Counted from the stretch's first letter, positions 9,896-28,779 are shown. The stretch is 53,148 nt of DNA from a virus (IMGVR_UViG_3300037755_000177:1-53148), one strand, 5' to 3'. The notes: generated from the letters alone by a model not told the origin. Program-made: numbers and translations.

Positions 9896-10150
9896 TTATT
9901 GGACTAGCAGCCCAGCGTCTGCTTTGTAGTCTTCCAGATACTCAGCCATATGCGCTCGCATTTCAGCGCATTCCGCGTAGTCATCGCGTTTGACGATCTT
10001 AAATCCGCCCTGCCAAAGAGTGGACATGAGTTCGTGGGAGTCGGCAGCAAGCCATTCAGGGTGTTCGCCCCTTGCATTGAGGAAGCAAGACAGCATGAAC
10101 ATTTCAATGATGCTCCTAGCCTCGACTTCGAGTTTGCCATCGTCGCTCAT
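9896..10150 (-). CDS. Hypothetical protein (cassette-like, between direct repeats)
   Basis: AAGGAG RBS adjacent to the repeat. Confidence 0.55.
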   Translation of the reverse strand: MSDDGKLEVEARSIIEMFMLSCFLNARGEHPEWLAADSHELMSTLWQGGFKIVKRDDYAECAEMRAHMAEYLEDYKADAGLLVQ

Positions 10151-10439
10151 TTAAATCTCCTTGGACTAGCAGCCCATTTATTCTGGCTTCGCGCCTTCAG
10201 TACTTGGGCTAGGTGCCGTGTTCTTTACCCATCCACAATCTGGCGACAGAAAAAACTTCAACGGTAGCGAGAAGCGAGTTGGTCGCTTCCATCGCTTGTG
10301 CCATCGCTCAAGCGTTATCTCCTTGCTTGTGCAACACAAGACGCGGGCGGTTAGCGGGCCTTCGCCATAGTTTGAAACGAAACGATCCTCTTGGCTCCAA
10401 TCAAACTGCACCTTGCTCTCTCCTTGGACTAGCAGCCCA
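9899..10439. repeat. Three direct 16-bp repeats TTGGACTAGCAGCCCA separating single genes
   Basis: Copies at 9899, 10161 and 10424; periods 262 and 263 bp. Confidence 0.9.
10178..10411 (-). CDS. Hypothetical protein (cassette-like, between direct repeats)
   Basis: GTG start in the GAGAGCAAGGTG motif. Confidence 0.5.
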   Translation of the reverse strand: MQFDWSQEDRFVSNYGEGPLTARVLCCTSKEITLERWHKRWKRPTRFSLPLKFFLSPDCGWVKNTAPSPSTEGAKPE

Positions 10440-10450
10440 CTTGGGCGTTG

Positions 10451-10527
10451 TGGTCAGGGCGGTTGGATTCGAACCAACGATTTCCGCATTCCAAGTGCGG
10501 CGGATTACCGGACTTTCCCACACCCTG
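10451..10527 (-). tRNA. tRNA-Pro(UGG) with encoded CCA
   Basis: CAGGGTG/CGCCCTG acceptor, CCGCA-CTTGGAA-TGCGG anticodon arm, GTTGG-TTCGAAT-CCAAC T arm, A73-CCA. Confidence 0.93.
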
Positions 10528-10531
10528 TAAC

Positions 10532-11878
10532 TCAATCCTTGAACGGGTCGAACTCGCCTTCTCCCGCCATTGCGACGGCAAAAGGGCGAAGCGTATGCAG
10601 CACTTTCACCGACCCCACGTGGTGAGCAAGAACTTCCGGCAAGCGGCGATAGGCCATCGGGCTTTCGTCCAAGTCTGCGCCGATCAATGTCACGCCACGC
10701 TCTTGAAGCCAAGCGTCCATCGTCGCGCGGTCAAATCGGCGCTTCGCTTCCTTGCGCCCGAATAATCGCCCCGCTCCGTGGATTGTCGAATATAGCGATG
10801 CCTTCGCCTCTGGGCTATCGACACCTTCGACAATCACCGCGTCGTCGCCCATTGATCCGCCGACGAACCCGCGCTGGCCGGGGAAGGCTGGTGTTGCGCC
10901 CTTGCGCACAACCCACAAATCGCGCCCGCCGTGGTTCTCACGCCATGCGTAGTTGTGATGGTTATGCACCATGTCTGTCACGGCCCCGCCGATGATCTTG
11001 CGCACCCGCTCAATCACCCACTCGCGGCCCGCATAGGAATAGCGCCCGGCCAATTCCATCGCGGCTATATAGCGACGGCCAAGCTCGGAATCCTCGTCGA
11101 TCACGGCGGGTGGCACGTTCATGCCGTCCTTGCCGCCAGCGGCTTTCAGGTAGCGCGTGGCGCTCGTATGCCCAAGCCCGCGCGAACCGAAGTGGACGCC
11201 AATCCAAGTAAAGCCATCCTCGTCGCGCATCAAATCGACGTAGTGATTGCCGGAGCCGACCGTGCCTAATTGGCTGACGGCCTTCTGACGATACTCGCCC
11301 ATATCGGATTCGAGCCAAGCGTCGGCATCGTCAAACAGTTCGTGTTCTACTCGTTCCTCGTTTGTGCGGCCAACGCCAAACGAAATAACCTTCGCAACGT
11401 CCTTGATGATAGGACCGATACGATCCTTGATTGCCTCGAAGGGCGTATCGAGGCGAACGGCCATGTTGCCGCAGCCAATATCAAAGCCGACGCCTGAAAT
11501 GCTGATTTGCTTTTCATAGGCGATCACGCCGCCTACCGGCTGCGCGTAGCCCAAGTGCCCATCAGCGCAGATCACGCCCGCCACGACATTGCCGACGCCC
11601 ATGCAGTTGCGCATTTGGGCAATCGTATTTTCGTCATGGTCCCCGAATATCTTGAGCGGGCTATTCTGAAACTCTGGCTCTTGCGGTTTGATAGCAATGT
11701 CGGCGGCTAACTGCGCCGCCTCTTTCGCAACGTGTTCTTTGCGCGCATCGTCGCGGAACGTGCACCACGCAGGCATCGTGCGATCACTGCCCGGCTTCTC
11801 AATGCGAGCATCGGGATCAAGCCCGGCAGCAATCGCCAGCTCGCGGCAGCGTTCATAATATGGATCAGGCTTTCGCAT
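10532..11878 (-). CDS. rtcB: RtcB-family RNA ligase with an N-terminal extension of about 70 aa
   Basis: DGHLGYAQPVGG, GFDIGCG, QLGTVGSGNHY, HFGSRG, HNHHN, RKGAT, HGAGR, DESPMAYR. Confidence 0.92.
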   Translation of the reverse strand: MRKPDPYYERCRELAIAAGLDPDARIEKPGSDRTMPAWCTFRDDARKEHVAKEAAQLAADIAIKPQEPEFQNSPLKIFGDHDENTIAQMRNCMGVGNVVAGVICADGHLGYAQPVGGVIAYEKQISISGVGFDIGCGNMAVRLDTPFEAIKDRIGPIIKDVAKVISFGVGRTNEERVEHELFDDADAWLESDMGEYRQKAVSQLGTVGSGNHYVDLMRDEDGFTWIGVHFGSRGLGHTSATRYLKAAGGKDGMNVPPAVIDEDSELGRRYIAAMELAGRYSYAGREWVIERVRKIIGGAVTDMVHNHHNYAWRENHGGRDLWVVRKGATPAFPGQRGFVGGSMGDDAVIVEGVDSPEAKASLYSTIHGAGRLFGRKEAKRRFDRATMDAWLQERGVTLIGADLDESPMAYRRLPEVLAHHVGSVKVLHTLRPFAVAMAGEGEFDPFKD

Positions 11879-11950
11879 AGTCTATAATCCTTCTCTCACA
11901 GGGCGGGCAGACGATGGGTGTAGGGTGTCCGAACAAATACGGGACAGAAC

Positions 11951-12135
11951 TGCAAACCGACTTGCAAACCGGCTGAGGGAAAATCGGGCTAAGTACTGGT
12001 CGGAGCGCCGAGATTTGAACTCGGGACCCCTAGTCCCCCAGACAGGGGCGGTTATTGGAATCCCTAGCGAAACTTTGCAAACCATCTGCGTTCGTCCGTA
12101 TTGAATCGTAAAGGGAATTTAGCCTATTGCAAACC
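11951..12135. repeat. Integrase arm-type sites TGCAAACC x4 flanking the attP core
   Basis: Copies at 11951, 11963, 12076 and 12128. Confidence 0.7.
11997..12043 (-). other. attP core: 3' half of host tRNA-Pro(GGG)
   Basis: GTCTGGGGGACTAGGGGTCCCGAGTTCAAATCTCGGCGCTCCGACCA; no 5' half or D arm; just downstream of the integrase. Confidence 0.85.
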
Positions 12136-13147
12136 GTCTTTCGAGCTTTGCGATGGCGTTCTCCGCGAGTATCCGCGTTCGCGAAAGATACTTGTCGAGG
12201 ATCGCGGCGATATTCCTGAGGCTGTGCCCGGTGATAGCGGCGATCTCCTGGGGCGTGCATCCGGCCTCCGAAAGCATGGTGATTGCCGTGCCCCTCAGAT
12301 CGTGGAAATGAAGCCCGCCAAGCCCTGCCTCGTCGCTCGCGGCCTTCCATGCCCGATTGAATCCCCGACGATCCCATGGCTTGCCGGTCGGGCTTAGGAG
12401 GATAAGCGCGGCCTTCCTCGGGGCTTTGTCGAGCGCGTCCTTGAGTGCCTTCGTGCAAGGCACTCGCACGCGGCGCTTGCGTTTGCTCTGGCGCAGCGTA
12501 ATGGCCTCCCCGTCATAGGCGGGCCATGTGAGCGCCCTAAGGTCCCCTTGGCGCTGACCGGTATGCAGGGCGAGCATCAAGGCCATTTGAAGCTCAGGCG
12601 ACGCCACTGCGCAAAACGCCTTGATATGCTCCGGTAGCCAGATCATGTCGCTACGGTCGGAGCTATAGACCCGCTTCCATCCCCTCAGCGGGTTTTCGTC
12701 GATCATCCCCCGTTCCTCGGCCCACGCCAGCACTTTCGCCAGATGGCCTAGCGTATTGTCGGCACCCCTCGGGTGCTTGACGGCCATGCGGTCGCGCCAC
12801 GCGAGAAAATCAGGCCGCACCTTCTTTCGTTCGGCCAATGCTGAAACCGGCAAAGTTCCATATTCAGCATCGATCTTGCGGAACAGATAGGCAGCTATCT
12901 TGCGGCTTTCGGCTTCCAATTTCAGGAAGTCCGGCGATTCCTCATAGGACCGCACAAGGCTTGCCAGCGTGCCGCGCACATAGTCATTCCGTGACGCCTT
13001 GGCGTTGGCGAGCGAGGCGAGAAATTCAGGCGATCCCGGCTGGCCGGTTAATTTGATCCGGGTCGCGCGGTGATAGAAATAGGTTCGGGACGTCCCGTCA
13101 GCGAGGCGTTTGGTCGCCGTGTTGATTCCTGGCAGGCGAACGCGCAC
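12119..13147 (-). CDS. int: Tyrosine integrase
   Basis: 'TGQRQGDL', 'HFHDLRGTA', 'ITGH', 'KY' catalytic set; probable GTG start at 13147. Confidence 0.92.
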   Translation of the reverse strand: MRVRLPGINTATKRLADGTSRTYFYHRATRIKLTGQPGSPEFLASLANAKASRNDYVRGTLASLVRSYEESPDFLKLEAESRKIAAYLFRKIDAEYGTLPVSALAERKKVRPDFLAWRDRMAVKHPRGADNTLGHLAKVLAWAEERGMIDENPLRGWKRVYSSDRSDMIWLPEHIKAFCAVASPELQMALMLALHTGQRQGDLRALTWPAYDGEAITLRQSKRKRRVRVPCTKALKDALDKAPRKAALILLSPTGKPWDRRGFNRAWKAASDEAGLGGLHFHDLRGTAITMLSEAGCTPQEIAAITGHSLRNIAAILDKYLSRTRILAENAIAKLERRFAIG

Positions 13148-13352
13148 GTTTCCACTCGTCAAAGACGGACCCGCCTTCATCGGAGGGCAAGCCGCTAGCG
13201 CGATCAAGGGCAAGGTCGAGCGCCTTTCGGTCCCACCTGTGCGTATTGGGGATAGGACCGGGCAGGATACCTTTTCTGCGCCAAGCATCGAAGCTCTCCA
13301 CTGATATTCCTATATGCTGTGCCGCCTCGTCGCGGGTCATACAGCGGCTCAT
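13098..13352 (-). CDS. xis: Excisionase-like HTH protein
   Basis: 'MTRDEAAQHIGIS...FDAW...LPGP...RWDRKALD', directly upstream of int. Confidence 0.75.
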   Translation of the reverse strand: MSRCMTRDEAAQHIGISVESFDAWRRKGILPGPIPNTHRWDRKALDLALDRASGLPSDEGGSVFDEWKRARSPARNQHGDQTPR

Positions 13353-13424
13353 TCTTTCTGCACCTTGCTCTCCCGTTCAATCACTTGCACTCGGGTTCAC
13401 ATTGTATGAGATAATAGTCCCATA

Positions 13425-14261
13425 TTACTTCCCCTCCACACCTGCCTTTAATGCGAGGGCGGTGTCGATTCGGGCTAGCGCGTCCGTGAACTGAGCGTAG
13501 GCATCGTTAAAATCTTCAATGCCGTCCGGCTGAAATTGCTCAGGGACGATTAGCGATGGGGGCTCTGTTTCAGCCGAGAACAAGGATGAAAATCGTAAGC
13601 CAGCCTTCTGCGCTTCCTCCAAAGCCTCGACCAAAGCGTCTGAGGCTGGCGGGGCGTGACGGGCGATGATGGCGTGAACTGCTGGAGAGGTCGCGACATT
13701 GGCGGCAATTTCGGTTGTCGTCTTGACGCCACGGTCAACCATGTCGTTCAAAACGTCATTTATCGCGCCAGCCAATTCTGTTTTTGCATCTTCGTTCCAG
13801 TCACCCGCTACGGGTGCGGGGGAGGCGGCTAGGACGGCATGACGAACTCGCAGATTTTGGTATTCGTCATAATCGACGATGTAGAAGTACGGCCCATATT
13901 CAGGGACAAGTTCAGGCGACCAAATACGAATATTGGCCGGTAATTTTAGGTCTAGAATCGCAACTGCGGCAGCCGCCGCGTGCATGTAAATTCCGGTCGC
14001 AACTTCGATTGTCTGCTCTGGGCCATCATTAACGCGCAGCATGAACCTTTGCCCCACCACCTCACCTGCGGGAGTGTCGTCGGGTGAATGTTTCATTGAG
14101 CGGGCCAAAATCTTGGCTTCGTCCATTAAGTCGGTAATGCGAATGGCAAGCTCTTTCTTCGGGTCGTCCGCTTGCAGCGCGTCGAAAAGCTGACACAGCC
14201 CCGCGTGGATTAACTCCACCTTCGCCGCCGCCTCTATCCCTAGTTTGAATCGGTCAGTCAT
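13425..14261 (-). CDS. Mosaic hypothetical protein
   Basis: Long ORF with patchwork composition typical of early-region fusion proteins. Confidence 0.55.
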   Translation of the reverse strand: MTDRFKLGIEAAAKVELIHAGLCQLFDALQADDPKKELAIRITDLMDEAKILARSMKHSPDDTPAGEVVGQRFMLRVNDGPEQTIEVATGIYMHAAAAAVAILDLKLPANIRIWSPELVPEYGPYFYIVDYDEYQNLRVRHAVLAASPAPVAGDWNEDAKTELAGAINDVLNDMVDRGVKTTTEIAANVATSPAVHAIIARHAPPASDALVEALEEAQKAGLRFSSLFSAETEPPSLIVPEQFQPDGIEDFNDAYAQFTDALARIDTALALKAGVEGK

Positions 14262-14296
14262 TGGGACTATTCCCTCATCATTTGTGCTGGCGTGAT

Positions 14297-14518
14297 TCAG
14301 TACGGTTCCGCCGTGAAGTGCGCTCGGTCACGACGCACGAAATAGGCTTCGACTTCGACATAGGCCATGTAGTACGGCCAGCCAGCCGCCATCATGTAAC
14401 GCGCAAAACTCCTATCGAGGTCTGACGGCCATGCCGCAAAGTAACCGGCAACATAAATTACTATGAGCGCTTGAGACGCATAATTGTTTGGCCTTTTGGG
14501 TTTTGTCTCCATCACCAT
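14297..14518 (-). CDS. Small membrane protein
   Basis: TM segment; stop codon lies in the TCAGTAC motif. Confidence 0.5.
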   Translation of the reverse strand: MVMETKPKRPNNYASQALIVIYVAGYFAAWPSDLDRSFARYMMAAGWPYYMAYVEVEAYFVRRDRAHFTAEPY

Positions 14519-14937
14519 CTCTCCACTTGTCCGCTAGTTCGTTTTATCTTCGTCCTGAACGCACTCAATGTAAGTTCAGCCGCCTCAATGTCTCCGGTAT
14601 TCGCCCAAAGAGCGGACGCGACTTGCAAAGGATCGATTCCAATTTCATTCCACCATTCACGCTCATTGTTTTCGTGCTGCTCAATGTGAACTTCCCTGTG
14701 CAATGGGACCGTCCATCTATCGTGCGGCTTCTGGCCTATTCCGGTATCGGGTTTTCCGTAGAACGGATCGCCGTACCTGATATGAGCCGGATCGACGCCG
14801 TACTTTCCTGTGATTAAACACGGCAGCTTGCGGACGAATTTCAAATGCGGTTCGCTCTTTTCTCTTGGCCGCTTTTTCGTGCTGGCCGATAGGGAATTGG
14901 AAAAGGCGGTCGCCGGTCGGACAATGCGCTGGGCCAT
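14512..14937 (-). CDS. DUF968/HNH-like recombination-associated nuclease
   Basis: 'HLKFVRKLPC...DPAHIR...KPHD.WTVPL.R..H.EQH'. Confidence 0.7.
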   Translation of the reverse strand: MAQRIVRPATAFSNSLSASTKKRPREKSEPHLKFVRKLPCLITGKYGVDPAHIRYGDPFYGKPDTGIGQKPHDRWTVPLHREVHIEQHENNEREWWNEIGIDPLQVASALWANTGDIEAAELTLSAFRTKIKRTSGQVERW

Positions 14938-15219
14938 CTATTCCGCCTCCGCTTCTTTAATGGCGGCGTCGATTGCAGCGCCCCAACACTTTTGCGCTGG
15001 CGTAACCGGATCGAGCAGACCTGAATGATTGTTGAGGCAGCCGAGAATCGCCTCATCGCCGTTGCAATACATTTCCTCAGTCGGCTCCCGCATAGCCTTC
15101 AATGCCGCGAGGGCAAGCCAGAGCCATGCGTTGCGTTCGGCTTCCGGGGCTTTTCCCCAAGCGCCAACCCATGTCTGCGCTTCACACATCGCTTGTGCCA
15201 TGTGGTCGATCATTTTCAT
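14938..15219 (-). CDS. Hypothetical protein
   Basis: 'AALKAMREPTEEM...AAIDAA' common phage family. Confidence 0.6.
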   Translation of the reverse strand: MKMIDHMAQAMCEAQTWVGAWGKAPEAERNAWLWLALAALKAMREPTEEMYCNGDEAILGCLNNHSGLLDPVTPAQKCWGAAIDAAIKEAEAE

Positions 15220-15725
15220 GACTGGCTCCAAAGCAAATATCTTGCGTGCAATTCATCCCAACGCTTGGCTGCTTCTGTGCCGGGGAGGATTTGGGAGCGC
15301 GAGCTAACGCCACAGTATTCTCGGACAAGTTCAATTGCTTTTTGCTCGGTCACTAAATCGTGGCCGCCCCAACCGTTTATTTCTTGCAAGAACCGCCAGA
15401 ACGCCGGTTCATTGCAAACCATCGCTACCCGTTGCGGTAAGGTGTAGACCTTTAGCTTCGCCCCCGCCGCCGTACTGTTACTGTCTCTCGACGGCGAGGG
15501 CTGGGCGTTATCGAGCCGGGGCGATAGTTTGGGTCGCTCGGTATTGGCATCACCCCCTTTCGGTTGCTCTAGTCGCGCGACTGCTACCCAAGCGCCATGC
15601 TCGGCTATCTCCGCAATGCGTGCGTGCTGTTCTATCGGGGCTTCAATCGTGATTGAAACAACGCCCCGAGTGGGAACGGTACGGAAGCCGTGAACGGTAG
15701 CTTGGAAAGCGGCGGCGTCTGTCAT
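15216..15725 (-). CDS. Hypothetical protein (recombination module)
   Basis: 'C.EPAFWRFL...VREYCGVSSRS.I' conserved phage pattern. Confidence 0.6.
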   Translation of the reverse strand: MTDAAAFQATVHGFRTVPTRGVVSITIEAPIEQHARIAEIAEHGAWVAVARLEQPKGGDANTERPKLSPRLDNAQPSPSRDSNSTAAGAKLKVYTLPQRVAMVCNEPAFWRFLQEINGWGGHDLVTEQKAIELVREYCGVSSRSQILPGTEAAKRWDELHARYLLWSQS

Positions 15726-15734
15726 GGTTGATCC

Positions 15735-16136
15735 TCAGAACGGTATGGAGTCGTCTGGCATTTCGTTGCTCGGCGGCGCGTCGTCGAAGCCAACCGCAGC
15801 CGCTACCGACTGCCGTTGTGGGGCAGCCTGTGCGGGCTTCCTTGCCTTGACGCGAATGGCTTCAACCGTGCTGCCCTGAAAATCCACGAGGTCTGTGTAG
15901 AGCGTGATTTCCTTGCCAATCCAGTTGTCCGTGTTCGTGCCGTAGGCAAAGGCGATGCGGTTTGCATTTGTCTTGTTCGCCACCAATGTTTTCTTCTTTC
16001 CCTGAAAGCCGATAACGAGCTTGTTGCCGTTGTCGAATTTCTTCATTTCAACGGAAGCAATAGTCACGGTCGGTTCGGCACCTTTCAGGTCCGCTGCTTT
16101 CAGTGTGTCGCCGCTGTAAACGTCAGAGATTTCCAT
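15735..16136 (-). CDS. Putative ssDNA-binding protein
   Basis: 'LKAADL...NKTN' family; acidic tail ending DDSIPF. Confidence 0.65.
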   Translation of the reverse strand: MEISDVYSGDTLKAADLKGAEPTVTIASVEMKKFDNGNKLVIGFQGKKKTLVANKTNANRIAFAYGTNTDNWIGKEITLYTDLVDFQGSTVEAIRVKARKPAQAAPQRQSVAAAVGFDDAPPSNEMPDDSIPF

Positions 16137-16157
16137 GTCATTTCCTTTCGGGTTGGG

Positions 16158-16658
16158 TTAGGAAGTGCGTACAGTTAGGGTAGGTGTTGTGTTGCTCAGG
16201 CACGCGCCGGGGACTTCGCCCCCCTCATCGAGCAGCGCAATTCGTATTGCGGTCTTGTCCGGCTCGCGCTTGATCCGCACGAAATTATCGGGCAACAAAG
16301 TCTCGTCGGTGATAACTACAGACTCGCGTCCCGGCGCGAGCGTGGCCGTAAAGTCCGGCGCGGCCAGCTTCTTAATCCCGGTTTCCGACATGACTTGCTT
16401 GACGCTATCGCGCAGCCTGTCGGCTCCGGCTGTCAGGCGTGAAGCGCGGTCGGTTAGTTCCTTGGCGTATTGCTTGCACGCAGAGGCGTCGGCCTCGCGT
16501 CCACGCGCGGCACGGATCATCCAACGCATCGCGTCTTGAAGGCCGTCCATGCCGTCGATTGTATCGAGCAGGGCAGGGTGATCGTCCTGAAGATCAGGAT
16601 ATTCCAACAGAAGCGCCTCGCGCATCCGATAGAATTGCTGGATGAGGGCGGGGTTCAT
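16158..16658 (-). CDS. Gp157-family (Mu Gam-like) protein
   Basis: Coiled coil then 'VVITDE..LP..F...K.EPDK.AI...VPGA.L'. Confidence 0.8.
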   Translation of the reverse strand: MNPALIQQFYRMREALLLEYPDLQDDHPALLDTIDGMDGLQDAMRWMIRAARGREADASACKQYAKELTDRASRLTAGADRLRDSVKQVMSETGIKKLAAPDFTATLAPGRESVVITDETLLPDNFVRIKREPDKTAIRIALLDEGGEVPGACLSNTTPTLTVRTS

Positions 16659-16867
16659 TCTGCTGCTTCCATGTGCGCTTGATCCCTTGCGAACTGCACG
16701 ACTCGGAACAATTCCGAATAGGCAAGTTCAAGATCGGGATATTCCCGCAACAAACATTCCCTTGTGATCGGGTCTTTCATCATTCTTGAGACAGTGCAGA
16801 TCGACTGGAATAGTTCGTGCAGGGCTACTTCGCTTTGTGCCTGGGGATCGTGGTCTAGGGGGTTCAT
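16655..16867 (-). CDS. Hypothetical protein
   Basis: Coupled ORF; RBS lies inside the neighbouring GGACTA element. Confidence 0.5.
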   Translation of the reverse strand: MNPLDHDPQAQSEVALHELFQSICTVSRMMKDPITRECLLREYPDLELAYSELFRVVQFARDQAHMEAAE

Positions 16868-16868
16868 G

Positions 16869-17298: not shown

Positions 17299-17299
17299 A

Positions 17300-18367: not shown

Positions 18368-18418
18368 GGCGGGCACCTTACTAGGCAGCGGGAGCGTTGC
18401 TATGCGGGTCGTCATCAC

Positions 18419-21522: not shown

Positions 21523-21549
21523 AGCATCCTCCTTTAGAAGATGCCTATC

Positions 21550-21600: not shown

Positions 21601-21664
21601 AATTTTTATATGCGTGTTACCGCAATGGCTTATGGTGGCGTTAAACGTGAAACCTAGATTCGGG

Positions 21665-21991: not shown

Positions 21992-22077
21992 GCTGGTACT
22001 ATAGCCGCAGCGCAACATTAAATCTCTTGCCAATACGGCAACAAGGCCCTTGACAGCACCGTTGCCGATATGGCAAC
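21984..22077 (+). promoter_or_regulatory. Right operator/promoter (OR/PR-like)
   Basis: Palindromes at 22061-22077 (perfect), 22026-22042 and 21984-22000; TTGACA at 22050. Confidence 0.75.
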
Positions 22078-22086
22078 AGAAAAGGC

Positions 22087-22317
22087 ATGGCAACTGTCCA
22101 TCCCTTAACCGAATTTCGGCTCGCGCAGGACCCGCCTTGGTCGCGCGCCAAACTGGCCGAAGCTCTCAATGTGTCGCGGCCCGCTGTATTTCGCTGGGAA
22201 AAGGGCGACCGTAAGATTGACGCTGAATTGGTTCCTACGATCAGCGAGATAACCGGCATCCCCGCGCGCGTGCTTCGCCCCGATCTCGTTGAACTTCTTG
22301 GCGAGGCCGCGCAATGA
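22087..22317 (+). CDS. Cro-like HTH protein
   Basis: 'SRAKLAEALNVSRPAVFRWE...LRPDL'. Confidence 0.85.
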   Translation: MATVHPLTEFRLAQDPPWSRAKLAEALNVSRPAVFRWEKGDRKIDAELVPTISEITGIPARVLRPDLVELLGEAAQ

Positions 22318-22319
22318 CC

Positions 22320-22577
22320 TCACACCAGCCGCAAGCCTTCCGCTGCATTGATCGCCCGCGTAAATTCCGCGCGGATGCGTTCGGTAGCCGTGACGGGACG
22401 TGCGAACCGGCAAATACCGATACGCTCGAAAAGCCCGGTGGCCGGATTCTTGCGGTACTCGACCGCGACGGCGCGCAAGATATTTCCGATCACAGCGGCA
22501 TTCACGATGTCGTCGTAAAACACCGTTTGCAGGCTGGTGTCGTCGATAAACAGTTCCGGGTGAATCGCTCGGTGCAT
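22320..22577 (-). CDS. Antisense hypothetical protein after cro
   Basis: Protein-like composition; convergent with cro. Confidence 0.4.
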   Translation of the reverse strand: MHRAIHPELFIDDTSLQTVFYDDIVNAAVIGNILRAVAVEYRKNPATGLFERIGICRFARPVTATERIRAEFTRAINAAEGLRLV

Positions 22578-22848
22578 GAGTACAACCCCCTAGGAGTCTC
22601 CCCAGTCCTAGAGTTGTACGCCTTACGAACTCGCGCGGCGATAGATCGAATTGGTTACGCCCGTAAGTCACCTCAAGCACGCCTTCGTGATTTTGCTTAC
22701 GTAGAAACACGTACTGAACGACAGCAATCATTACATATCGAACGCGCGGCTTCTGTCCTCCCCAGGCTGGCCGCGTCAGCGGCGCTCCCGTTTCCTCGCA
22801 CGGTTGAGCGCCGCGCAAATTCCAAGCCCACCAACCAAGGAGAAGACA

Positions 22849-23142
22849 ATGGCAGACTATTCTGGCGGACTGCAAGGCGGGATGAATGCTGCCGTGGCAG
22901 TGAAGGAAAGTTCGCTCATGGAAACGAGCGGCTCGCTTTCGGCTCAAGCAAACGATTTGCTGAACGCGCTTCAACATGTCGAAGATCATTTGAGCGGCGG
23001 GAAGCCGCACGATGTTTCGGGCAAACTTGCAGGCGGGCCACAACCCACGCCCGTACTGGCGGCACAGCTTCGCGACACGTCCTATGTCCTGCGGCAGGCA
23101 TTCGAGACTGTGCAGCGGATCAAGAACGGCATCGGCATTTAA
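22849..23142 (+). CDS. Hypothetical protein
   Basis: AAGGAG RBS before ATG 22849. Confidence 0.55.
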   Translation: MADYSGGLQGGMNAAVAVKESSLMETSGSLSAQANDLLNALQHVEDHLSGGKPHDVSGKLAGGPQPTPVLAAQLRDTSYVLRQAFETVQRIKNGIGI

Positions 23143-23446
23143 CCAATTCAATTCACGCCTTCGGGCGTGGAGTCTCGCGGCGGCGTGGAAAGCAGACACG
23201 CACGGTATGCGGCCAGCCGAGCAACGCATTAGGTTGCGAAACTCGCGAAATGGCGAGTGCACCGCCGACGGAAGCTGGAGCCGGATTAGCGCCCGGCCCG
23301 CGAGACAATTCATTCCGGCGCGTCCTCGGCTGGCCCAATTCTGACCAACAATTCCAATCCCGCAATCGCGGACGCAAAACCAGCCGCGAAGGCGAGGAAT
23401 ATAATCAGAATAATCCAGCCGTACATTTTCAAACCTTGGTGGCGTC

Positions 23447-23866
23447 ATGACAATTTCCATGCGCAACCATGCCAATGCTACAGCCGGGATGGCAAATACA
23501 GGCCACGAAATAAATTGCGACGACAACCGCAATAAGTTGCGGACGATTGATTCGGTTATGCGCGTGGCGCGTAGCTTGTGGCCGCGCAAGACAGCGACGG
23601 AATTGTCAATCAAATCGGGTGCTTCTCAACGTGCCTGCGAATACTGGCTGGCCCGCAAGTTCGACATGAACGCCGACGCGCTGGCTGCACTTTTGCAGAG
23701 CGATGACGGCTTTCATTTTCTCGAAGCGATCATGGGCGAGGCACGTCCTGTCTGGTGGCGCATGTTCAAGCGCCGGATGCAGCGCGCCCAGACCCGCAAG
23801 GATTTTCTGGCGTTGCAGAAACGGCAAATGGAGTTGGATTTAGAAGACGCGGCGGACACCGAGTAG
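23447..23866 (+). CDS. CII-like HTH regulator
   Basis: 'WPRKTATELS..SGAS.RACEYWL'; position after cro. Confidence 0.55.
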   Translation: MTISMRNHANATAGMANTGHEINCDDNRNKLRTIDSVMRVARSLWPRKTATELSIKSGASQRACEYWLARKFDMNADALAALLQSDDGFHFLEAIMGEARPVWWRMFKRRMQRAQTRKDFLALQKRQMELDLEDAADTE

Positions 23867-24148
23867 TTCCAATAGTGCGGCGGCGTGCGCTTCACGCCAT
23901 CGGGTTAACAGGCCAGAGCCCGATTATGCGGCAGTTTTTAGCTGACAGAGCGGAATGGATCGCGAACGCTCACATGCGTTGCGCGGCGACGTGGTTTGCC
24001 ATTTCCGATTGGATCGAAGGCGACGGCTCACTACCAGCCATTGCGAAAGCATGGAGGGGGCGATGACGCTCACCCTAATTCTCATCTGGTTAGAAATCTC
24101 AATTCTACTCGGCCTGTATTTAGGTCCTGTCATGGGGAGGGCGGGGAG

Positions 24149-24403
24149 ATGAGTACCGTCTGTGAACAGGTGATTATTTCCATCGTGTCGGACATTCACG
24201 CCAAGGACGGAACGATAGCAGCCGTTCAAGCCATCGACGACATGATGGACGGTTTGATCCGCTACCGGCGAATGCTGACGGGATTCCGCGAGACGGCGGA
24301 GCATCTTGATTGGCGCGCGCATTGCGACGCTTCGGTCATGGCGGAAGCGATCTCGCGACAAACTAAATACGGCTGGTACGAAGAACCAAAGCGGAGTGCG
24401 TAA
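24149..24403 (+). CDS. Hypothetical protein
   Basis: Coupled ORF. Confidence 0.45.
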   Translation: MSTVCEQVIISIVSDIHAKDGTIAAVQAIDDMMDGLIRYRRMLTGFRETAEHLDWRAHCDASVMAEAISRQTKYGWYEEPKRSA

Positions 24404-24916
24404 ATGAGTTGGGAAAATCTAGCTCGCGTTGAAGCCGTCGAATGCCGGACTGCGAACGGCGTCCGCGCTCTGGCTAGGCGTTATACAAGGTTACCCACAG
24501 TCCCGATTGTCAGGTTCAAGCGGCCCGAACCTGAAATTCCGGTCCCGCGAATTGTCATTCCCGCGCCTTGCAGCGAGCCCTTCTGTCACCGCGCTATCGC
24601 CAAAATGTGGGTAAGGCCCGGACCTATGGCCGTCACGATACCGGCGATCAACCGGGCCGTCTGCAAGCATTACAACGTGACCCTGACTGACCTGCATTTG
24701 CATTCAAGGACCGTGCGGCTGGTTCGTCCCCGGCAGGTCGCCATGTTTCTCGCGCGCACGTACACGAAAAATTCGTTCCCGGAAATCGGCAGACGAATGG
24801 GTGGCAAGGATCACACGTCCGTTTTCTACGCAGTCAGGAAGATATCAGAATTATCCATGATCGACCCTGTTCTTTCCCGCGATCTGGACGAACTGCGGGG
24901 AGTGCTTGGGGTATGA
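24404..24916 (+). CDS. DnaA C-terminal-HTH-domain protein
   Basis: 'RPRQVAMFLAR..T..SFPEIGR..GGKDHTSV.YAVRKI'. Confidence 0.85.
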   Translation: MSWENLARVEAVECRTANGVRALARRYTRLPTVPIVRFKRPEPEIPVPRIVIPAPCSEPFCHRAIAKMWVRPGPMAVTIPAINRAVCKHYNVTLTDLHLHSRTVRLVRPRQVAMFLARTYTKNSFPEIGRRMGGKDHTSVFYAVRKISELSMIDPVLSRDLDELRGVLGV

Positions 24917-25122
24917 GCCGTTCACGCTGCGCATGGTGCGGCAATCGCATTTCGCAATTCGAAATTGCCGAACACCAGCCTGAATGCCGTTGGAGGCGTC
25001 TGGGACGCATAACAAATTGGGCGCGCGCCGCTTCTGAAAGCCGGGAGCGCAGCGGCATTCCTAGTTTTGCTGATCCTCCCTTCGCAGTCGCACCAGACAA
25101 GCCGCAAGGAAGCGTAGTGTGA
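24913..25122 (+). CDS. Small Cys/His protein
   Basis: CxxC...H..C; ATGA coupling. Confidence 0.45.
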   Translation: MSRSRCAWCGNRISQFEIAEHQPECRWRRLGRITNWARAASESRERSGIPSFADPPFAVAPDKPQGSVV

Positions 25123-25796
25123 CTATGGCTGAACTGATCCGACGAATGACTGATCTTGGGGCAACGCCGCCTCTGATCTCGTTCGTCGTTGAAGCAGTCG
25201 AGGAAATGTCCGGGACAAGTCCGGGACAGGTCCGGGACATCATCAGAAAATATGAGCGGGACCGCAGACTAAAATCACGCAAGAAAGCCAACAAAACCAA
25301 GGGGAGCGCGGAAGCAAACGATGCCGCGCCAGCGCCCGAAAATGTCCCGGACATTCGGCCCAACAGCCGAATTGCGTCTTGTGACCTTTCTTCCCTTCCT
25401 TCCTTACTTCCTGAAGAAGCTACCGAGAAAGTAAGAAAGAAAAGTAGAGGGGATACGCGCGCGCGAGGCACGCGGCTGCCAGCCGATTGGCAACCGAGTG
25501 AAGCTGATCGCCAGTACGCGATTGACCGAGGCGTAAACCCGGACGAACTCCGCGACGAATTTGTTGATTATTGGACAGGCGTACCCGGCCAACGCGGGTT
25601 CAAGCTGAATTGGCCGGGCACATGGCGCAACCGCGTTCGCGATGTTGCTGGAAAAGGAAAACAGCATGTCTACCGAAATGGTTCGGCCCCCCGAACAGAC
25701 CTCCAACGTGCTCTCGATAAGGCCCGCGAATACGCTCGAACTGGCGATCAGGAACACACTTCCATTCCCGAAGACGAGCCTGCCAACCGCCACTGA
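25119..25796 (+). CDS. Replication initiator (O/DnaT-like)
   Basis: 'RGTRLPADWQPS...EFVDYW...W..TWRN'; internal iterons. Confidence 0.7.
   Translation: MTMAELIRRMTDLGATPPLISFVVEAVEEMSGTSPGQVRDIIRKYERDRRLKSRKKANKTKGSAEANDAAPAPENVPDIRPNSRIASCDLSSLPSLLPEEATEKVRKKSRGDTRARGTRLPADWQPSEADRQYAIDRGVNPDELRDEFVDYWTGVPGQRGFKLNWPGTWRNRVRDVAGKGKQHVYRNGSAPRTDLQRALDKAREYARTGDQEHTSIPEDEPANRH
25208..25352. repeat. Iterons of the replication origin
   Basis: GTCCGGGACA at 25208, 25219 and 25230 (11-bp period); inverted copy at 25343. Confidence 0.75.
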
Positions 25797-26277
25797 GGCG
25801 GTGACGAGGATTATCGGCTGTTACCCGAACGGGAAGCCATCGGATTCGGAAACCTATATTTCCGCGCTGGTCGCGGTGCTTGCCGGTTATCCGCCTGAGA
25901 TTGTAGCGCGGGTATCTGATCCGGTTCGCGGTGTCGTGAGTAAGTCGAAGTTCCTGCCGACCGTTGCGGAATTAACCGACGCTTGCGAGGCCGATATGGA
26001 TCCGCTTCGCCGTCGATGGCGGGAAATAAAGGAACAGCGCGAGTCGGAGGAAAAGCGCCGGTTGGTTGTCACGGACGAGGGGGCAAAGAAGCGTGTCGCG
26101 GAGTCGATGGAAAAGCTATCGGTCGAATTGAAAGCCGCGCCCGATCCTGTGCCGCCCAAGCGCGACGGCACGGCCCCGGTTGGCACGTCTGCGGGCGGTG
26201 CGGTTGCCAAGGTCATTGCCGAGATAGCGGCCAAGAAGGCAAGCCGTACAGACCTTGAGGGTGTTGGTAATGGATAG
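25666..26277 (+). CDS. Helicase-loader/P-like replication protein
   Basis: 'Y...L...L..YP...FLPTVAEL...C' after the initiator. Confidence 0.55.
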   Translation: MSTEMVRPPEQTSNVLSIRPANTLELAIRNTLPFPKTSLPTATEAVTRIIGCYPNGKPSDSETYISALVAVLAGYPPEIVARVSDPVRGVVSKSKFLPTVAELTDACEADMDPLRRRWREIKEQRESEEKRRLVVTDEGAKKRVAESMEKLSVELKAAPDPVPPKRDGTAPVGTSAGGAVAKVIAEIAAKKASRTDLEGVGNG

Positions 26278-26288
26278 AAATGATTTTG

Positions 26289-26914
26289 GGACTATGACCG
26301 ATCATCGAACCGATAGCGCCATCAGTACGCCAATTGGAGAGCAAGGTGCGAGTATTACGCACGATGGACTCGCTTCTATGCTCGCGAAGCGGCTTAACTC
26401 TGGTTCGTTCTGTCATCGGGTGACGTGGGAAAATTTGGAGTTTAGCAATTGGAGCGAGCCAGAGACAGGTTTTCGTTGTCGCCCAGACGTGTTTTCTATT
26501 TTTCCTACTCTCGACGTAACGAAATGCCGTCCGTGGGCGCACGAAATTAAAATCAGCCGGGCCGACTTTCTGAGAGATGTTCGTAGTGGAAAATGGAAAA
26601 GCTATACGCGGTTTTCGTCGCGCGTTTTCTTTGCAGCGCCTATTGGCTTGATTCAGCCATCGGAAGTTCCTGATGGTGCGGGCCTATGGGAATTTGATGC
26701 AAGTAAACCTGATTTGTCTCTCCAATGGGAGATGAGGAAGCCTGCAAAATACTGCAAAGGATGGACGCTTCCCCCGCGCCATCTAATGAAACTGATTTTA
26801 GGGCGTTGGGGCACATATCAGGGTCAGTTGCCCGCACCGACGAGCGAAGCACGGACTAACGGCACGGGGCTAACGTACTGAAGAAAGATAAACAGCCAAG
26901 CACGCTGCTAGTCC
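26289..26914. mobile_element. Candidate gene cassette with inverted GGACTA(T/G)-N26-TCAGTAC ends
   Basis: Same motif with identical spacing at both ends, inverted. Confidence 0.5.
26294..26881 (+). CDS. MmcB-like PD-(D/E)XK nuclease
   Basis: 'RPDV...HEIKISRADFLRD...KW..Y...FAAP'. Confidence 0.7.
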   Translation: MTDHRTDSAISTPIGEQGASITHDGLASMLAKRLNSGSFCHRVTWENLEFSNWSEPETGFRCRPDVFSIFPTLDVTKCRPWAHEIKISRADFLRDVRSGKWKSYTRFSSRVFFAAPIGLIQPSEVPDGAGLWEFDASKPDLSLQWEMRKPAKYCKGWTLPPRHLMKLILGRWGTYQGQLPAPTSEARTNGTGLTY

Positions 26915-26947
26915 CCAACTCCAATCTCAATACGAGGCAGAAAGAGA

Positions 26948-27487
26948 ATGGCAAAAGCCGGTAGAAAGCGAAAGCAGGAAGATCGGGCCTGCAACGATGA
27001 TGTTTGCACCATCATGGTTGACGATCCCGGAGAGCTTATCGGCGGTGATCGGGTCTATCCCAATCCCGGCCAGAAGGTTGTGGCGCTTAAATCCCTACGA
27101 GACGACCCGCTTGGCAGGCTTCACCATCACAGGCAAATAGACGACGCCAAGTACCAAGCTGGTCGCACCATGCAGGGATTCTATGAGAGGGCTGAGATCG
27201 GCGGCTTGAAGGCCATGGACACAACGAAGGAGCCTGTGGATGGTGGTGGATTAGGCCCCGAGGCCATGAAGGACACGCAATTCAGGGCTATCAAGGAGAT
27301 TATTCGATTGGAGAAATCCCTTGGCATGGAGGGCGCGGCCTTAACGAGGCAGGTTCTGGCGAACCGAATGTTTATCGACCAGATCGCGGAGCAGCGCGGC
27401 ATGTGCGATCAGTTGGGCAAGAAGTATCTCGGGAGGCGGTTTCGGGAATGTCTGGAAACATTGGCGAAGGAGTTGCATTATGCCTGA
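26948..27487 (+). CDS. Late-gene regulator (Q-like position)
   Basis: 'DDPLGRL....ID...Y.AG...LETLA' family typical of alphaproteobacterial prophages; precedes the late operon. Confidence 0.5.
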   Translation: MAKAGRKRKQEDRACNDDVCTIMVDDPGELIGGDRVYPNPGQKVVALKSLRDDPLGRLHHHRQIDDAKYQAGRTMQGFYERAEIGGLKAMDTTKEPVDGGGLGPEAMKDTQFRAIKEIIRLEKSLGMEGAALTRQVLANRMFIDQIAEQRGMCDQLGKKYLGRRFRECLETLAKELHYA

Positions 27488-27710
27488 TTGGCAGCCGATT
27501 GAAAGCGCGCCGAGGGATGGGACGCGCATCCTTGTGTGGGGGAAAATTTTTCCAGAACACGCGGTTGCCTGTTGGCGGCCTAAAGGTGTTTTGATGGAGG
27601 GCTGGGAAAGTCACCCATATAGCGAGTGTGACATTGTTTCTCCAACCCACTGGATGCCACTACCCGACCCACCACATCTTGACACGGTACAGCAAGAGGG
27701 CCACAAATAG
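27480..27710 (+). CDS. DUF551-family protein
   Basis: 'WQPIESAPRDGT...PTHWMPLPDPP'. Confidence 0.8.
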   Translation: MPDWQPIESAPRDGTRILVWGKIFPEHAVACWRPKGVLMEGWESHPYSECDIVSPTHWMPLPDPPHLDTVQQEGHK

Positions 27711-27788
27711 GCATCCTCGCAAGTGATTTGGTCTTACCCGCCCCGGAAGGGGAAAAGGATTCGAGATGGACGATCAACAACGCCACGG

Positions 27789-27862
27789 CCCCGCTTCGTT
27801 CAACGGCAGGACACCTGATTTTGAATCAGGAGATCGTGGTTCGAATCCATGCGCGGGAGCCA
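27789..27862 (+). tRNA. tRNA-Gln(UUG) with encoded CCA; imperfect acceptor stem
   Basis: GTTC/GGAC D stem, CCTGA-TTTTGAA-TCAGG anticodon arm, CGTGG-TTCGAAT-CCATG T arm, G73-CCA. Confidence 0.85.
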
Positions 27863-28111
27863 ACGCTCGCTAGACAAGTTTTCAGAGATTCCGCAGAGGG
27901 GGCAGAGGCGTCTCACACTGCTGAGTATGCGGACAAACGCCGGAATCTGGTTTGGCTTTGGGCTATCTTACCCCGGCGCGCGTCATTGGTGAGCGGGTTT
28001 AGGCTTCGGCCTAAGCGAGACACCCGTATATCGGTGCCGTGACTTCGGTTGCCCCGAATTAAAAGACAGAACTGTTCCCCGCCCCGGAAGGGTGCGGGAA
28101 GGATTCGTGCG

Positions 28112-28255
28112 ATGAGCTGGCTAATCATTCCGGTGCCGCTATTCGGCCAGATCAATTTAAAATGGTCGCGCGATTCCCTGTTCTCTGAACGAAATGGATT
28201 TGTGCCGACTTTCTCAATCTTCGGCGTGCGCGTTACTTGGCGTTCCAAACGCTAA
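28112..28255 (+). CDS. Small hypothetical protein
   Basis: AAGGA RBS; 'LFSERNG' pattern. Confidence 0.4.
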   Translation: MSWLIIPVPLFGQINLKWSRDSLFSERNGFVPTFSIFGVRVTWRSKR

Positions 28256-28291
28256 TACGTGCGCCTCATAAGGGCGTAGAGAGGATTCGCC

Positions 28292-28519
28292 GTGAAGGTT
28301 ATCCGCGCATATGGCGGCAAGGTATTTCTGTCGTGCTATGGCGGCGGCTGGGGGTTTGAGTACCAGCGCAATCGTGTTTTCAATCCGCCTCGCCGCACAG
28401 CCTTAACAACGGCAGACGGAAAAGCCATTTACAATTTCAGGGACGGCCAGCACGGCTATGGAACGGCTGAGACATTGCGTGAAGCGCGCCGTCATGGCGT
28501 GAACGCATTGAAAAACTAG
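28292..28519 (+). CDS. Hypothetical protein flanked by 13-bp direct repeats
   Basis: GTAGAGAGGATTC at 28276 and 28528. Confidence 0.5.
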   Translation: MKVIRAYGGKVFLSCYGGGWGFEYQRNRVFNPPRRTALTTADGKAIYNFRDGQHGYGTAETLREARRHGVNALKN

Positions 28520-28548
28520 ATCGTTTTGTAGAGAGGATTCATTGGACT

Positions 28549-28779
28549 ATGCCCACTTCAACTCGTGATAGCGCCATCAGTACTCGGGCCGGAGAGCAAG
28601 GTGCTGTTCCGCGTTGTCGTGACTTCGACGAAGATTGCGCGGACATTGGCGACGGAAACGGCTTCGACTCGCATTTAGATTGCTGGCTGTACGATCCAGC
28701 GAAAGGCCACTGCCCGTTTCTTCGCGCCGTAAGCGCCGATTGGATTTGGCCTTCCCACCCCCCATCATCGAGACGATAG
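28549..28779 (+). CDS. Small Cys-containing protein; N-terminus encoded by a GGACTA element
   Basis: DSAIST..GEQGA shared with the 26294 protein. Confidence 0.45.
   Translation: MPTSTRDSAISTRAGEQGAVPRCRDFDEDCADIGDGNGFDSHLDCWLYDPAKGHCPFLRAVSADWIWPSHPPSSRR

Follow-up and report, generated by a model that had tools for sequence, protein, structure and literature searches.

GGACTA elements of a temperate phage as a repeated subset of short gene-junction linkers that probably act as portable homology for gene exchange

Modular theory predicted that phage genomes would contain conserved linkers, and because such linkers were not found in most phages, illegitimate recombination came to be the favoured view, according to the part of PMC3029335 used here. 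Here, we describe a set of short elements built around the hexamer GGACTA and placed where genes meet in the early region of a temperate phage, represented by IMGVR_UViG_3300037755_000177, an entire IMG/VR virus record of 53,148 nt that is referred to below as the window. An initial annotation had listed 12 of these sites between 9899 and 28604 and read them as a candidate phage gene-cassette system. Comparison with a related phage points to a somewhat different account, in which the GGACTA sites are probably the repeated subset of some 30 short junction linkers in the early non-structural region, serving as portable homology for gene swapping.

Several described systems bear on such elements. 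The boundary sequences of lambdoid phages are short and conserved and lie at module borders, where homologous recombination has been suggested to reassort the modules (Susskind and Botstein 1978; Clark et al. 2001, as cited in the same part of PMC3029335). The promoter early stem-loop elements (PeSLs) of T4-type phages combine a strong sigma-70-like promoter with a stem-loop terminator and are repeated intergenic motifs of a plastic early region, between copies of which recombination has been proposed, as set out in the sections of Arbiol et al. 2010 (PMC2839356) on which we draw. Mini-circles produced when adjacent copies recombine are a further mark of the PeSLs. In cluster K mycobacteriophages, the start-associated sequences (SAS) and their extended form (ESAS) are described, in the relevant portion of Pope et al. 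2011 (PMC3203893), as a 13-nt GGGATAGGAGCCC with a Shine-Dalgarno core, placed 3-7 nt upstream of starts in essentially one orientation. In role, the elements of the window are closest to the lambdoid boundary sequences and to the T4-type PeSLs, although in anatomy they are not PeSLs. Comeau et al. reportedly also treated the PeSLs of T4-type phages, in 2014. A further point of reference is the integron attC site, an imperfect inverted repeat that forms a hairpin, has a GTTRRRY-type core, is served by an integron-type recombinase and makes up the cassette ends in arrays.

The comparison rests on a phage that we call G001 (48,833 nt), the only other record matched when viral contigs were scanned for TCAGTAC-N7-GGAGAGCAAGGTGC. 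It has an element set of its own, with seven matches to the composite pattern at no more than two mismatches against none for a reversed control pattern. No further relatives came from near and distant searches of GenBank phages, from a scan of viral contigs with GCTGCTAGTCCAAGGAG, or from pattern scans of genome and metagenome contigs, the latter also queried with a protein; the other searches for relatives returned G001 only. A search with the DnaA_C gene gave nine loci, namely G001 and eight others at 31-45% amino acid identity, and a hidden Markov model (HMM) of the element found no copy in those eight loci of more distant phages. Likewise, 80 loci (1.05 Mb) of terminase-small-subunit relatives contained no element, composite motif or 11-mer, and the family is thus lineage-specific rather than a general signal. 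Window and G001 have in common a module at 4.8-9.1 kb (78-89% nucleotide identity), and no window open reading frame (ORF) beyond 29 kb matched G001 by blastp, so that the two have no detectable virion genes in common. As an aside on the record itself, positions ~1-3850 and 44990-48833 of G001 offer identical contexts 44,987 nt apart (GGACTA at 3165 and 48152, with duplicate blastn matches), and it seems to have a terminal redundancy of ~3.8 kb.

The early regions of window and G001 run collinearly, though in inverted orientation, with similarity limited to islands. A blastn comparison over 9000-29500 gave 38 high-scoring segment pairs, of which 34 were kept and four dropped as second-place matches overlapping kept ones. 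Thirty of the 34 are no longer than 130 nt; these islands (25-128 nt, 1844 nt in total) are 81-100% identical and pass abruptly into unrelated sequence at their edges. A called gene end is spanned by 22 of the 30, where random placement averaged 5.9 and never exceeded 15 over 5000 trials, the gene ends being our own ORF-based calls, made with no gene finder and with uncertain start codons. In all 27 inter-island intervals with DNA in both phages, global identity is 0.12-0.62, at most 0.05 above the shuffled control. The same picture is seen at the protein level, where 8 of 37 sense-strand early ORFs match G001 over their bodies (blastp, 32-85% amino acid identity), one does so only over 20 element-encoded residues and 28 have no match. 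Exact runs in the islands reach 77 nt (others being of 69, 65 and 52 nt) and compare with 73-89% identity in the best common genes, indicating that the islands have a more recent common ancestor than the surrounding genes or have been homogenised more often; identity of 100% runs through flanking codons, synonymous positions included.

Eleven of the 12 GGACTA sites fall in or abut an island, the sole site without a G001 counterpart being 10426. They make up 11 of the 30 short islands, and the other 19 are unique sequences that behave in the same way. The initial annotation had set as a test whether synteny with relatives breaks at the motifs, with empty sites or different cargo, and this is what is seen, both in the 11 sites at islands and in three conserved brackets with unrelated cargo and the gene at 9896-10150, whose site is empty in G001. 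What is not supported is the notion of GGACTA as the defining end, given that 19 of the 30 islands lack it and behave alike. It is the lambdoid boundary concept, of a short conserved sequence between stretches of non-homologous DNA, that best fits all 30 islands, as far as the partial account cited above describes it, with 22 of 30 islands at gene ends and unrelated DNA in 27 of 27 intervals.

The islands without GGACTA, together with two that adjoin or resemble the GGACTA family, are exemplified by the following:

14935-14967, minus strand: GGACTA-free island of 33 nt, 100% identical, with unrelated ORFs on its upstream side and, downstream, HNH genes of two families (phrog_96 and phrog_333).
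17587-17655, minus strand: GGACTA-free island of 69 nt, 100% identical, with a stop/start overlap and the first 16 codons (MKELIARLEKATGPDR) of a protein whose remainder is 32% identical.
19887-19936, minus strand: GGACTA-free island of 50 nt, 100% identical, in which a GC-rich hairpin is found together with a Shine-Dalgarno sequence and start codon.
26914-26978, plus strand: island of 65 nt, 100% identical, that extends from the upstream side of ORF 26948-27487 into its start.
11876-11937, minus strand: island of 88.9% identity that ends in (T)GACTATG, the RtcB start; its G001 counterpart instead starts an 87-aa ORF opening with a T-type element.

The repeated family itself is well above chance. 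GGACTA occurs 22 times on both strands against 9.9 (standard deviation 3.0) in shuffled sequences, none of 100 shuffles reaching 22, and 15 of the 22 fall in 9899-28604: the 12 listed sites, all of them in the early region, and 12036(-), 17407(-) and 26853(+), the first of which sits in a tRNA-like fragment discussed below. The fixed spacing that the initial annotation had reported is also present, with GGACTAK-N26-TCAGTAC (K being T or G) exact at 14264, 16869, 26289, 26914(-) and 28544 and found with two mismatches at 18848, making six matches at no more than two mismatches against 0.14 expected (six was reached in none of 100 shuffles). At 10163, the spacing is N27. A second block, GGAGAGCAAGGTGC, is exact at 13360-13373(-), 26336 and 28591 and has a one-mismatch copy at 10408-10421(-), giving four copies against 0.37 expected; from these coordinates and those of the hexamer the reported GGACTAT-N40-GGAGAGCAAGGTGC spacing follows. 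The six exact copies claimed for the 11-mer GGACTAGCAGC are there (~0.03 expected by hand arithmetic), and the signal lies in the exact copies, since at up to two mismatches the count of 11 is not enriched over the 10.5 due to chance. TCAGTAC occurs nine times against 1.9 expected. The sites do lie at gene boundaries, the hexamer edge being within 5 nt of an ORF-based gene end in 7 of 12 cases (random 5.4%) and within 50 nt in all 12 (random 28%). The 12 sites, classed as T-type (GGACTAT) or G-type, are as follows:

9901-9914, plus strand: G-type, with the sense (minus) strand reading TGGGCTGCTAGTCC; it encodes the last codons (..GLLVQ*) of gene 9896-10150 and is the downstream one of the two direct-repeat copies at that gene's flanks.
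10163-10222, plus strand: G-type core element and upstream copy of the 16-nt direct repeat, followed on the minus strand by the Shine-Dalgarno AAGGAGA and the ATG of gene 9896-10150.
10408-10436, plus strand: G-type 11-mer (10426-10436) abutting AGAGAGCAAGGTGC (10408-10421, minus strand), a block whose GTG opens ORF 10178-10411; the site is just downstream of tRNA-Pro.
13360-13420, minus strand: T-type, in sense orientation, with GGACTAT-N40-GGAGAGCAAGGTGC ahead of the integrase; G001 has the first 27 nt as well (island 13394-13436, 97.7%).
14264-14325, plus strand: T-type core; the sense strand gives the last codons and TGA of ORF 14297-14518, the Shine-Dalgarno GAGGGA, TAGTCC and the ATG of 13425-14261; island identity 88%.
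16869-16929, plus strand: T-type core, giving the last nine codons and TGA of ORF 16902-17222, the Shine-Dalgarno AAGGAG, TAGTCC and the ATG of 16655-16867; island 16835-16929, 88.8%.
17222-17298, minus strand: G-type leader of ~76 nt, with an upstream stop, GGACTAGCAGC, ~30 variable nt, a conserved block ending in GAACAAGTTTGATGGAGAG and the ATG of ORF 16902-17222; 74% identical to the 19380 copy.
18848-18907, plus strand: T-type core with TCATTAT in place of TCAGTAC, giving the last codons and stop of ORF 18884-19099; island 18792-18904, 92.9%.
19307-19380, minus strand: G-type leader at which G001 homology stops exactly at the GGACTAGCAGC end (island 19370-19448, 97.5%); the ATG at 19307 opens just 20 codons.
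26289-26349, plus strand: T-type, sense, encoding the first 19 codons (MTDHRTDSAISTPIGEQGA) of the 195-aa, DNA-repair-protein-like ORF 26294-26881.
26857-26914, minus strand: G-type core at the 3' end of ORF 26294-26881, supplying ..LTY and TGA; the 100% island 26914-26978 starts at its outer edge.
28544-28604, plus strand: T-type, sense, encoding the first 19 codons (MPTSTRDSAISTRAGEQGA) of ORF 28549-28779; 95% identical to G001, where a different 116-aa ORF comes next.

Read in the sense of the genes, these sites fall into a reverse and a sense arrangement, the latter with two forms. In the reverse arrangement (14264, 16869, 18848, 10163 and 26914), the last codons of a gene run into GTAC-TGA, followed by 26 nt with a Shine-Dalgarno sequence, (A/C)TAGTCC and (C/CA)ATG; ORFs do end on GTAC-TGA at 14297, 16902 and 26881, as the initial annotation had it. 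In the sense leader form (17298, 19380 and 13420), an upstream stop is followed by GGACTA, a leader of ~75 nt, a Shine-Dalgarno sequence and ATG, and in the sense coding form (26289 and 28544) GGACT-ATG is translated as M..DSAIST..GEQGA, which is all that the otherwise unrelated 195-aa and 76-aa proteins have in common (11 of 13 residues). Relative to transcription, then, a single DNA family serves on either strand. It is a heterogeneous family: an alignment of 16 copies from the two phages retains GGACTA, TCAGTA(C) and one G of ..GGTGC at a mean column identity of 64%, with a spacing change of one nucleotide either way in four copies. An HMM built from 15 sites, seven of them from the window, rescores those seven by construction, finds only partial matches at 13420, 19380, 10426 and 9901 (E 0.22-3.1) and does not recover 17298.

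The elements reported to form inverted pairs around one or two genes, and in one case around an integrase-to-tRNA block, do so. Eight inward-facing GGACTA pairs are present, four in the window and four in G001, and six enclose one ORF each; the remaining window pairs enclose two small ORFs in one case and the integrase-to-tRNA block in the other. Every one of the four window pairs has one G-type and one T-type end. In addition, a tandem array of three G-type sites (9901/10163/10426) bounds two small genes that are unrelated, as are those at 28292/28549, so that tandem paralogy can be set aside as the origin of these neighbours.

Between window and G001, the differences fall at the level of single cassettes. 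Four sites are filled in one phage and empty in the other, the direct repeats measuring 16, 13, 7 and 4 nt, and two of these sites are filled in the window:

9915-10157, minus strand: cassette with gene 9896-10150 (84 aa), between two TGGGCTGCTAGTCCAA copies; absent from G001, where one TGGGCTGCTAGTCCAA copy joins the same outer flanks.
28289-28527, plus strand: cassette with gene 28292-28519 (75 aa), between two GTAGAGAGGATTC copies; absent from G001.

The other two are filled in G001, one with 414 nt (two ORFs) at ..GGGAAGT, where the window has none, and one with 516 nt (two ORFs) against 1 nt in the window, only ATGA being repeated. Elsewhere, cargo has been replaced. In G001, the conserved brackets 16869/17298, 18848/19380 and 26289/26914 enclose unrelated ORFs; between the linkers 13394-13436 and 11876-11937 the window has its integrase, the tRNA-like fragment and RtcB, where an additional bracketed ORF and another integrase are found in G001; and HNH genes of different families lie downstream of the 100% island 14935-14967. 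One gene has also changed place, ORF 18884-19099 being 85% identical in amino acids to G001 40121-40324, which is located at a different junction. Here, the homology is that of the ORF body only, the last codons and stop in the window coming from the 18848 element. In G001, elements furnish the N-terminus (MTMTASNREPAFSTLAPEQGA) as well as the C-terminus (..PKY*) of ORF 42430-42693, and another copy has its element frame stopped right after GEQGA. No flanking duplication is found other than the linker itself, in keeping with the earlier remark that no target duplication was visible.

A view of the natural population comes from a public sediment metagenome run (X1), kept as Logan contigs, which is possibly the source sample of the window and so is not independent support for its sequence. 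The run holds 97% of the sampled words of 9800-19700, and of the 128 contigs placed on 9001-29000, 69 fit only partly. The window's own error-free contigs in X1 end at islands, at 10161, 11905, 12014, 13433, 17317, 18825, 19912/19927, 22800, 23361, 24889/24918 and 26973. All sites but 9901 and 14264 (10 of 12) lie inside error-free pieces, among the eight listed, which supports the local arrangement. The 12 listed joints in X1 are all 'skips', Logan contigs dropping rare forms such as circles and inversions. One variant bears on an element directly:

14316-14548, minus strand: replaced by 11 other letters in an X1 contig (depth 9.25) that joins 14315 to 14549; the first eight of the 11 match the G001 version of the element.

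The replaced stretch covers most of ORF 14297-14518 and the last HNH codons, and the variant joins the HNH gene directly to the 14264 element. The linkers, then, are conserved where cargo differs: genes are present or absent at repeated linkers, slots common to both phages are filled with different cargo, one gene is in another slot, and the sample contains a further haplotype.

In the mechanism that we favour, each junction comprises the last codons and stop of one ORF and the Shine-Dalgarno sequence and start, often with the first codons, of the next, and linkers of this kind would be near-identical across a pool of related phages whose ORF bodies differ. Because a stop, a Shine-Dalgarno sequence, a start and terminal codons all lie within the linker, a crossover anywhere inside it would insert, delete or replace an ORF in frame and leave its expression signals intact. 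The exchange would proceed through homology-driven recombination, by host RecA or by phage functions (beside which the phage Mu Gam-like protein deserves mention), and not through a dedicated site-specific enzyme; such homology-driven exchange is, on balance, the likeliest mechanism. The family GGACTA(T/G)-N26-TCAGTAC..GGTGC probably arose by the copying of linkers along with their cassettes, and its conserved blocks may additionally have a cis-acting function, as those of PeSLs do. Recombination in common linkers is preferred here to illegitimate recombination followed by selection, because the latter needs two independent breaks within 30-110 nt at about 30 places.

Several observations weigh against exchange through portable homology. 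There is one relative genome only, and hence few independent events; both records are metagenome assemblies, and as assemblers can switch strains exactly at common islands, some long-range linkage in the window may be chimeric. Two of the four indels have a repeat of only 4-7 nt, which fits microhomology or illegitimate joining equally well. Paralogous copies hold GGACTA, TCAGTAC and GGTGC at near-fixed spacing amid 64% column identity, and this conservation of blocks in drifted copies suggests a sequence-specific function beyond neutral homology. At all five testable G-type sites (9901, 10163, 17298, 19380 and 26914), the breakpoints, judged by eye from blastn, lie within ~5 nt of the GGACTAGCAGC end, which is more site-like than plain homologous exchange predicts. 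Pfam and PHROGs searches with 50 window and 10 G001 ORFs identified no recombinase beyond the integrase and no single-strand annealing protein, and no circle or inversion product was seen directly in the Logan contigs, from which rare forms are missing.

The strongest competitor, though rather unlikely as the primary explanation and not exclusive of linker-mediated exchange, is that the sites are cis-regulatory, whether operators, stoperator-like sites or start-associated translation signals, with recombination a by-product. GGACTA, TCAGTAC and GGTGC, ~33 and ~21 nt apart from start to start, would then be contacts of a DNA-binding protein, and it is favoured by the (near-)invariance of these blocks, kept at near-fixed spacing although the 16 copies otherwise agree at only 64%. 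So does the position of the hexamer between Shine-Dalgarno sequence and start in both orientations, as TAGTCC(C/CA)ATG and GGACTATG, and the confinement of the family to the early region, as in the SAS of cluster K mycobacteriophages (in the portion of PMC3203893 used here), with none in the late region or in the 88 loci of other phages. Against this, both orientations relative to transcription occur, and the signals themselves are missing. A simple consensus scan of 9500-29400 for sigma-70-like promoters, with other promoter types outside its scope, found seven against 10.1 expected and none at a GGACTA site; intrinsic terminators in the same region number 30 against 24.9 expected, which is no enrichment, and none is centred on a T-type site. 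A promoter/terminator cassette was rejected on these grounds, neither class being enriched or at the sites. A structured RNA element was also rejected, as there is no consensus structure on either strand and no Rfam family: RNAalifold returned no pairs for 16 core copies on either strand, folding z-scores of single copies are mostly within two units of zero, and in Rfam 15 only two tRNAs pass, two other rows lying far below their gathering scores. For six leader copies, RNAalifold gave a weak helix of six pairs (-3.5 kcal/mol). Two further candidates were set aside, namely a conserved N-terminal tag, in that two sense copies of G001 differ 6/4/7 times at codon positions 1/2/3 (counted by eye) with no third-position excess, and pairing of the hexamer with the 3' end of 16S rRNA, which by eye is not contiguous with Shine-Dalgarno pairing. 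A regulatory role also sits poorly with 100% identity through flanking synonymous positions and with 19 of 30 islands that lack GGACTA yet behave alike, and on its own it fails to explain the unrelated DNA on either side of each island.

A narrower proposal, which we consider improbable, is that GGACTAGCAGC and the T-type GGACTAT end are targets of a putative phage or host enzyme, a nuclease or recombinase acting as a hotspot, that would actively initiate exchange at cassette edges. It is prompted by the five out of five breakpoints near the 11-mer, the G-type plus T-type make-up of the window pairs and the near-fixed block spacing in diverged copies; were it true, the single ORFs between inward-facing GGACTA ends would make up a phage-borne, expression-ready gene-cassette system distinct from both integrons and PeSLs.

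A fully dedicated site-specific system, integron-like or nuclease-driven, in which an enzyme cuts and joins at GGACTA(GCAGC) and mobilises the ORFs between inward-facing ends, is very doubtful. The inward-facing pairs, mostly around single ORFs and in the window always of mixed type, would suit it, as would the breakpoints at G-type sites, the tandem array around two unrelated small genes, and an HNH endonuclease gene that adjoins the 14264-type element not only in window and G001 but also in the variant of run X1; like attC sites, moreover, the elements are standardised sites at single-gene cassette ends in arrays. They differ from attC sites in having no hairpin, no GTTRRRY-type core and no shared integron-type recombinase. 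Nor is there a fixed crossover, the island edges lying 0 to ~56 nt from the hexamer (T-type islands straddle it by 5 to ~56 nt, with no fixed end to the homology) and the only conserved columns being GGACTA, TCAGTA and one G. Cargo is replaced inside kept brackets and has moved without brackets, and the flanking repeats of 4-16 nt lack GGACTA in two of four cases. No common candidate enzyme emerges, as the integrases (389 aa in the window, 343 aa in G001) have no blastp match at E<=1e-4, the HNH genes of the two phages have no similarity and the ParB-like proteins have no G001 homologue by blastp. The initial proposal of a gene-cassette system thus stands in part. Its elements are real and behave as standardised ends for gene exchange, as the islands, the brackets and the TGGGCTGCTAGTCCAA repeats attest, but the exchanged unit is the ORF body between linkers and not a GGACTA-bounded cassette, since islands straddle the hexamer by up to ~56 nt and the moved gene has no GGACTA ends; a dedicated integron-like system does not hold, with repeats that vary from 16 through 13 and 7 to 4 nt, no hairpin and integrases without detectable similarity.

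That the sites are artefact or chance, arising from assembly chimeras or from a small selfish element in intergenic DNA with no part in gene exchange, is extremely improbable. In favour of this reading, both genomes are metagenome assemblies, Logan contigs break at islands, and the element is a short one, present in either orientation, with an inverted terminus of 6 nt. Against it, chance is excluded by the motif statistics, the same islands are found in two separate IMG/VR records and in Logan contigs with 10 of 12 sites inside error-free contigs, and the elements overlap stop and start codons in register, unlike random insertions. An element like a miniature inverted-repeat transposable element or insertion sequence was rejected in particular, as inverted similarity extends (by eye) barely beyond the 6-nt hexamer and the linker itself is the only flanking duplication, with no target-site duplication.

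Set beside the described systems, the likeness to PeSLs, as far as the cited sections of PMC2839356 go, lies in a repeated motif of a plastic, non-essential early region that reaches from an upstream stop to a downstream Shine-Dalgarno sequence and start, and in insertions, deletions and replacements between relatives that fall between copies. The window elements differ in having no detectable sigma-70-like promoter or stem-loop, in reaching into coding sequence, where they supply N- and C-terminal codons in both orientations, and in belonging to a temperate phage that is not T4-like. The suggestion that they are reminiscent of attC sites or PeSLs while matching neither is therefore apt for the PeSL-like role and for the mismatch in anatomy with both, but not for any integron-like character. 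With SAS, in the portion of the description used above, they have in common a repeated motif near starts, in the non-structural half, next to different gene families, and they depart from SAS in length (~60 nt), in sequence, in occurring in both orientations and in also bearing the stop of the upstream gene. From lambdoid boundary sequences, finally, they are set apart by standing at most junctions of a 20-kb region, at single-gene resolution, with a third of them in one repeated family whose internal geometry is near-fixed.

The setting of the elements is made up of the following genes, the proteins being named from the Pfam and PHROGs searches, which also gave an epimerase-like protein:

10451-10527, minus strand: tRNA-Pro, after RtcB.
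10532-11878, minus strand: RtcB.
12119-13288, minus strand: tyrosine integrase, 389 aa.
14512-14937, minus strand: HNH.
16158-16658, minus strand: Mu Gam-like protein.
19941-21522, minus strand: two ParB-like proteins.
21665-22093, minus strand: repressor-like helix-turn-helix protein.
From 24404, plus strand: rightward early operon, with a DnaA_C helix-turn-helix protein, replication-initiator-like and DNA-repair-like proteins and tRNA-Gln.
27789-27862: tRNA-Gln, the second tRNA of the window.
28965-29504, plus strand: terminase small subunit, after the early operon.

A direct repeat of 143 nt at the termini of the record (2-144 and 53006-53148, 99% identical) indicates that the genome is probably complete and circularly assembled; the record itself is classed as linear and 85% complete despite this repeat. 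The nucleotide-sugar-epimerase-like gene (29501-30340; phrog_540, E 1.8e-32) directly follows the terminase small subunit, which is not where an auxiliary metabolic gene is usually located. Near the left end, two large ORFs on the plus strand (1420-2886 and 3544-4794) have at their 5' ends a 57-nt direct repeat (72% identical; 1457-1513 and 3560-3616) and may be paralogues with a common N-terminal module.

Around the integrase, RtcB and tRNA-Pro (10451-11878) form an insert specific to the window, where 1658 nt correspond to 234 nt in G001, and the insert could be a tRNA-repair or counter-defence module. Between integrase and RtcB, at 11990-12045 on the minus strand, lies a fragment resembling a tRNA 3' end (T-arm, ..CCGACCA), likely the attP core for integration into a tRNA gene. 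Of the xis-int-attP-rtcB-tRNA block named in the initial annotation, the integrase, the tRNA-like, likely attP fragment, RtcB and tRNA-Pro are present; the 'xis', a 67-aa ORF at 11882-12085, has no PHROG match and overlaps the attP fragment. The integrase leader (13363-13423, minus strand) contains an eight-codon ATG..TGA frame that overlaps the upstream stop (TAATATG) and is kept in G001, and a second short frame, GTG CAG AAA GAA TGA, overlaps the next ATG; these two tiny frames may serve translational coupling. The neighbouring 278-aa protein (13425-14261) and its 315-aa counterpart in G001 have in common only short repeated DNA blocks (window 13616-13833; G001 39386-39954), one 25-nt block occurring once in the window gene and at two places in that of G001, and run X1 has several 'skip' joints inside gene 13425-14261, whose product looks like a repeat-containing protein of variable length. 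Further along, the longest exact run common to G001, of 77 nt at 22771-22847, reads on the plus strand as a hairpin rich in GC and AAGGAGAAG, after which an ORF (MADYSGG..) opens with its ATG, signals that make the 502-aa minus-strand ORF 22105-23613 probably spurious; the rightward early operon may start near 22.8 kb.

Linker-mediated modular shuffling is known in kind, and what this phage would add is its single-gene resolution, in a temperate phage and with a repeated linker family of fixed geometry. Almost every junction of the 20-kb early region is a linker at the resolution of single genes and, if confirmed, this would be an unusually clean natural case in which to measure linker-mediated shuffling of accessory genes. 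The sites of the repeated GGACTA family may be recognised by a factor, and the linkers as a whole show how new ORFs can plug into an operon ready for expression.

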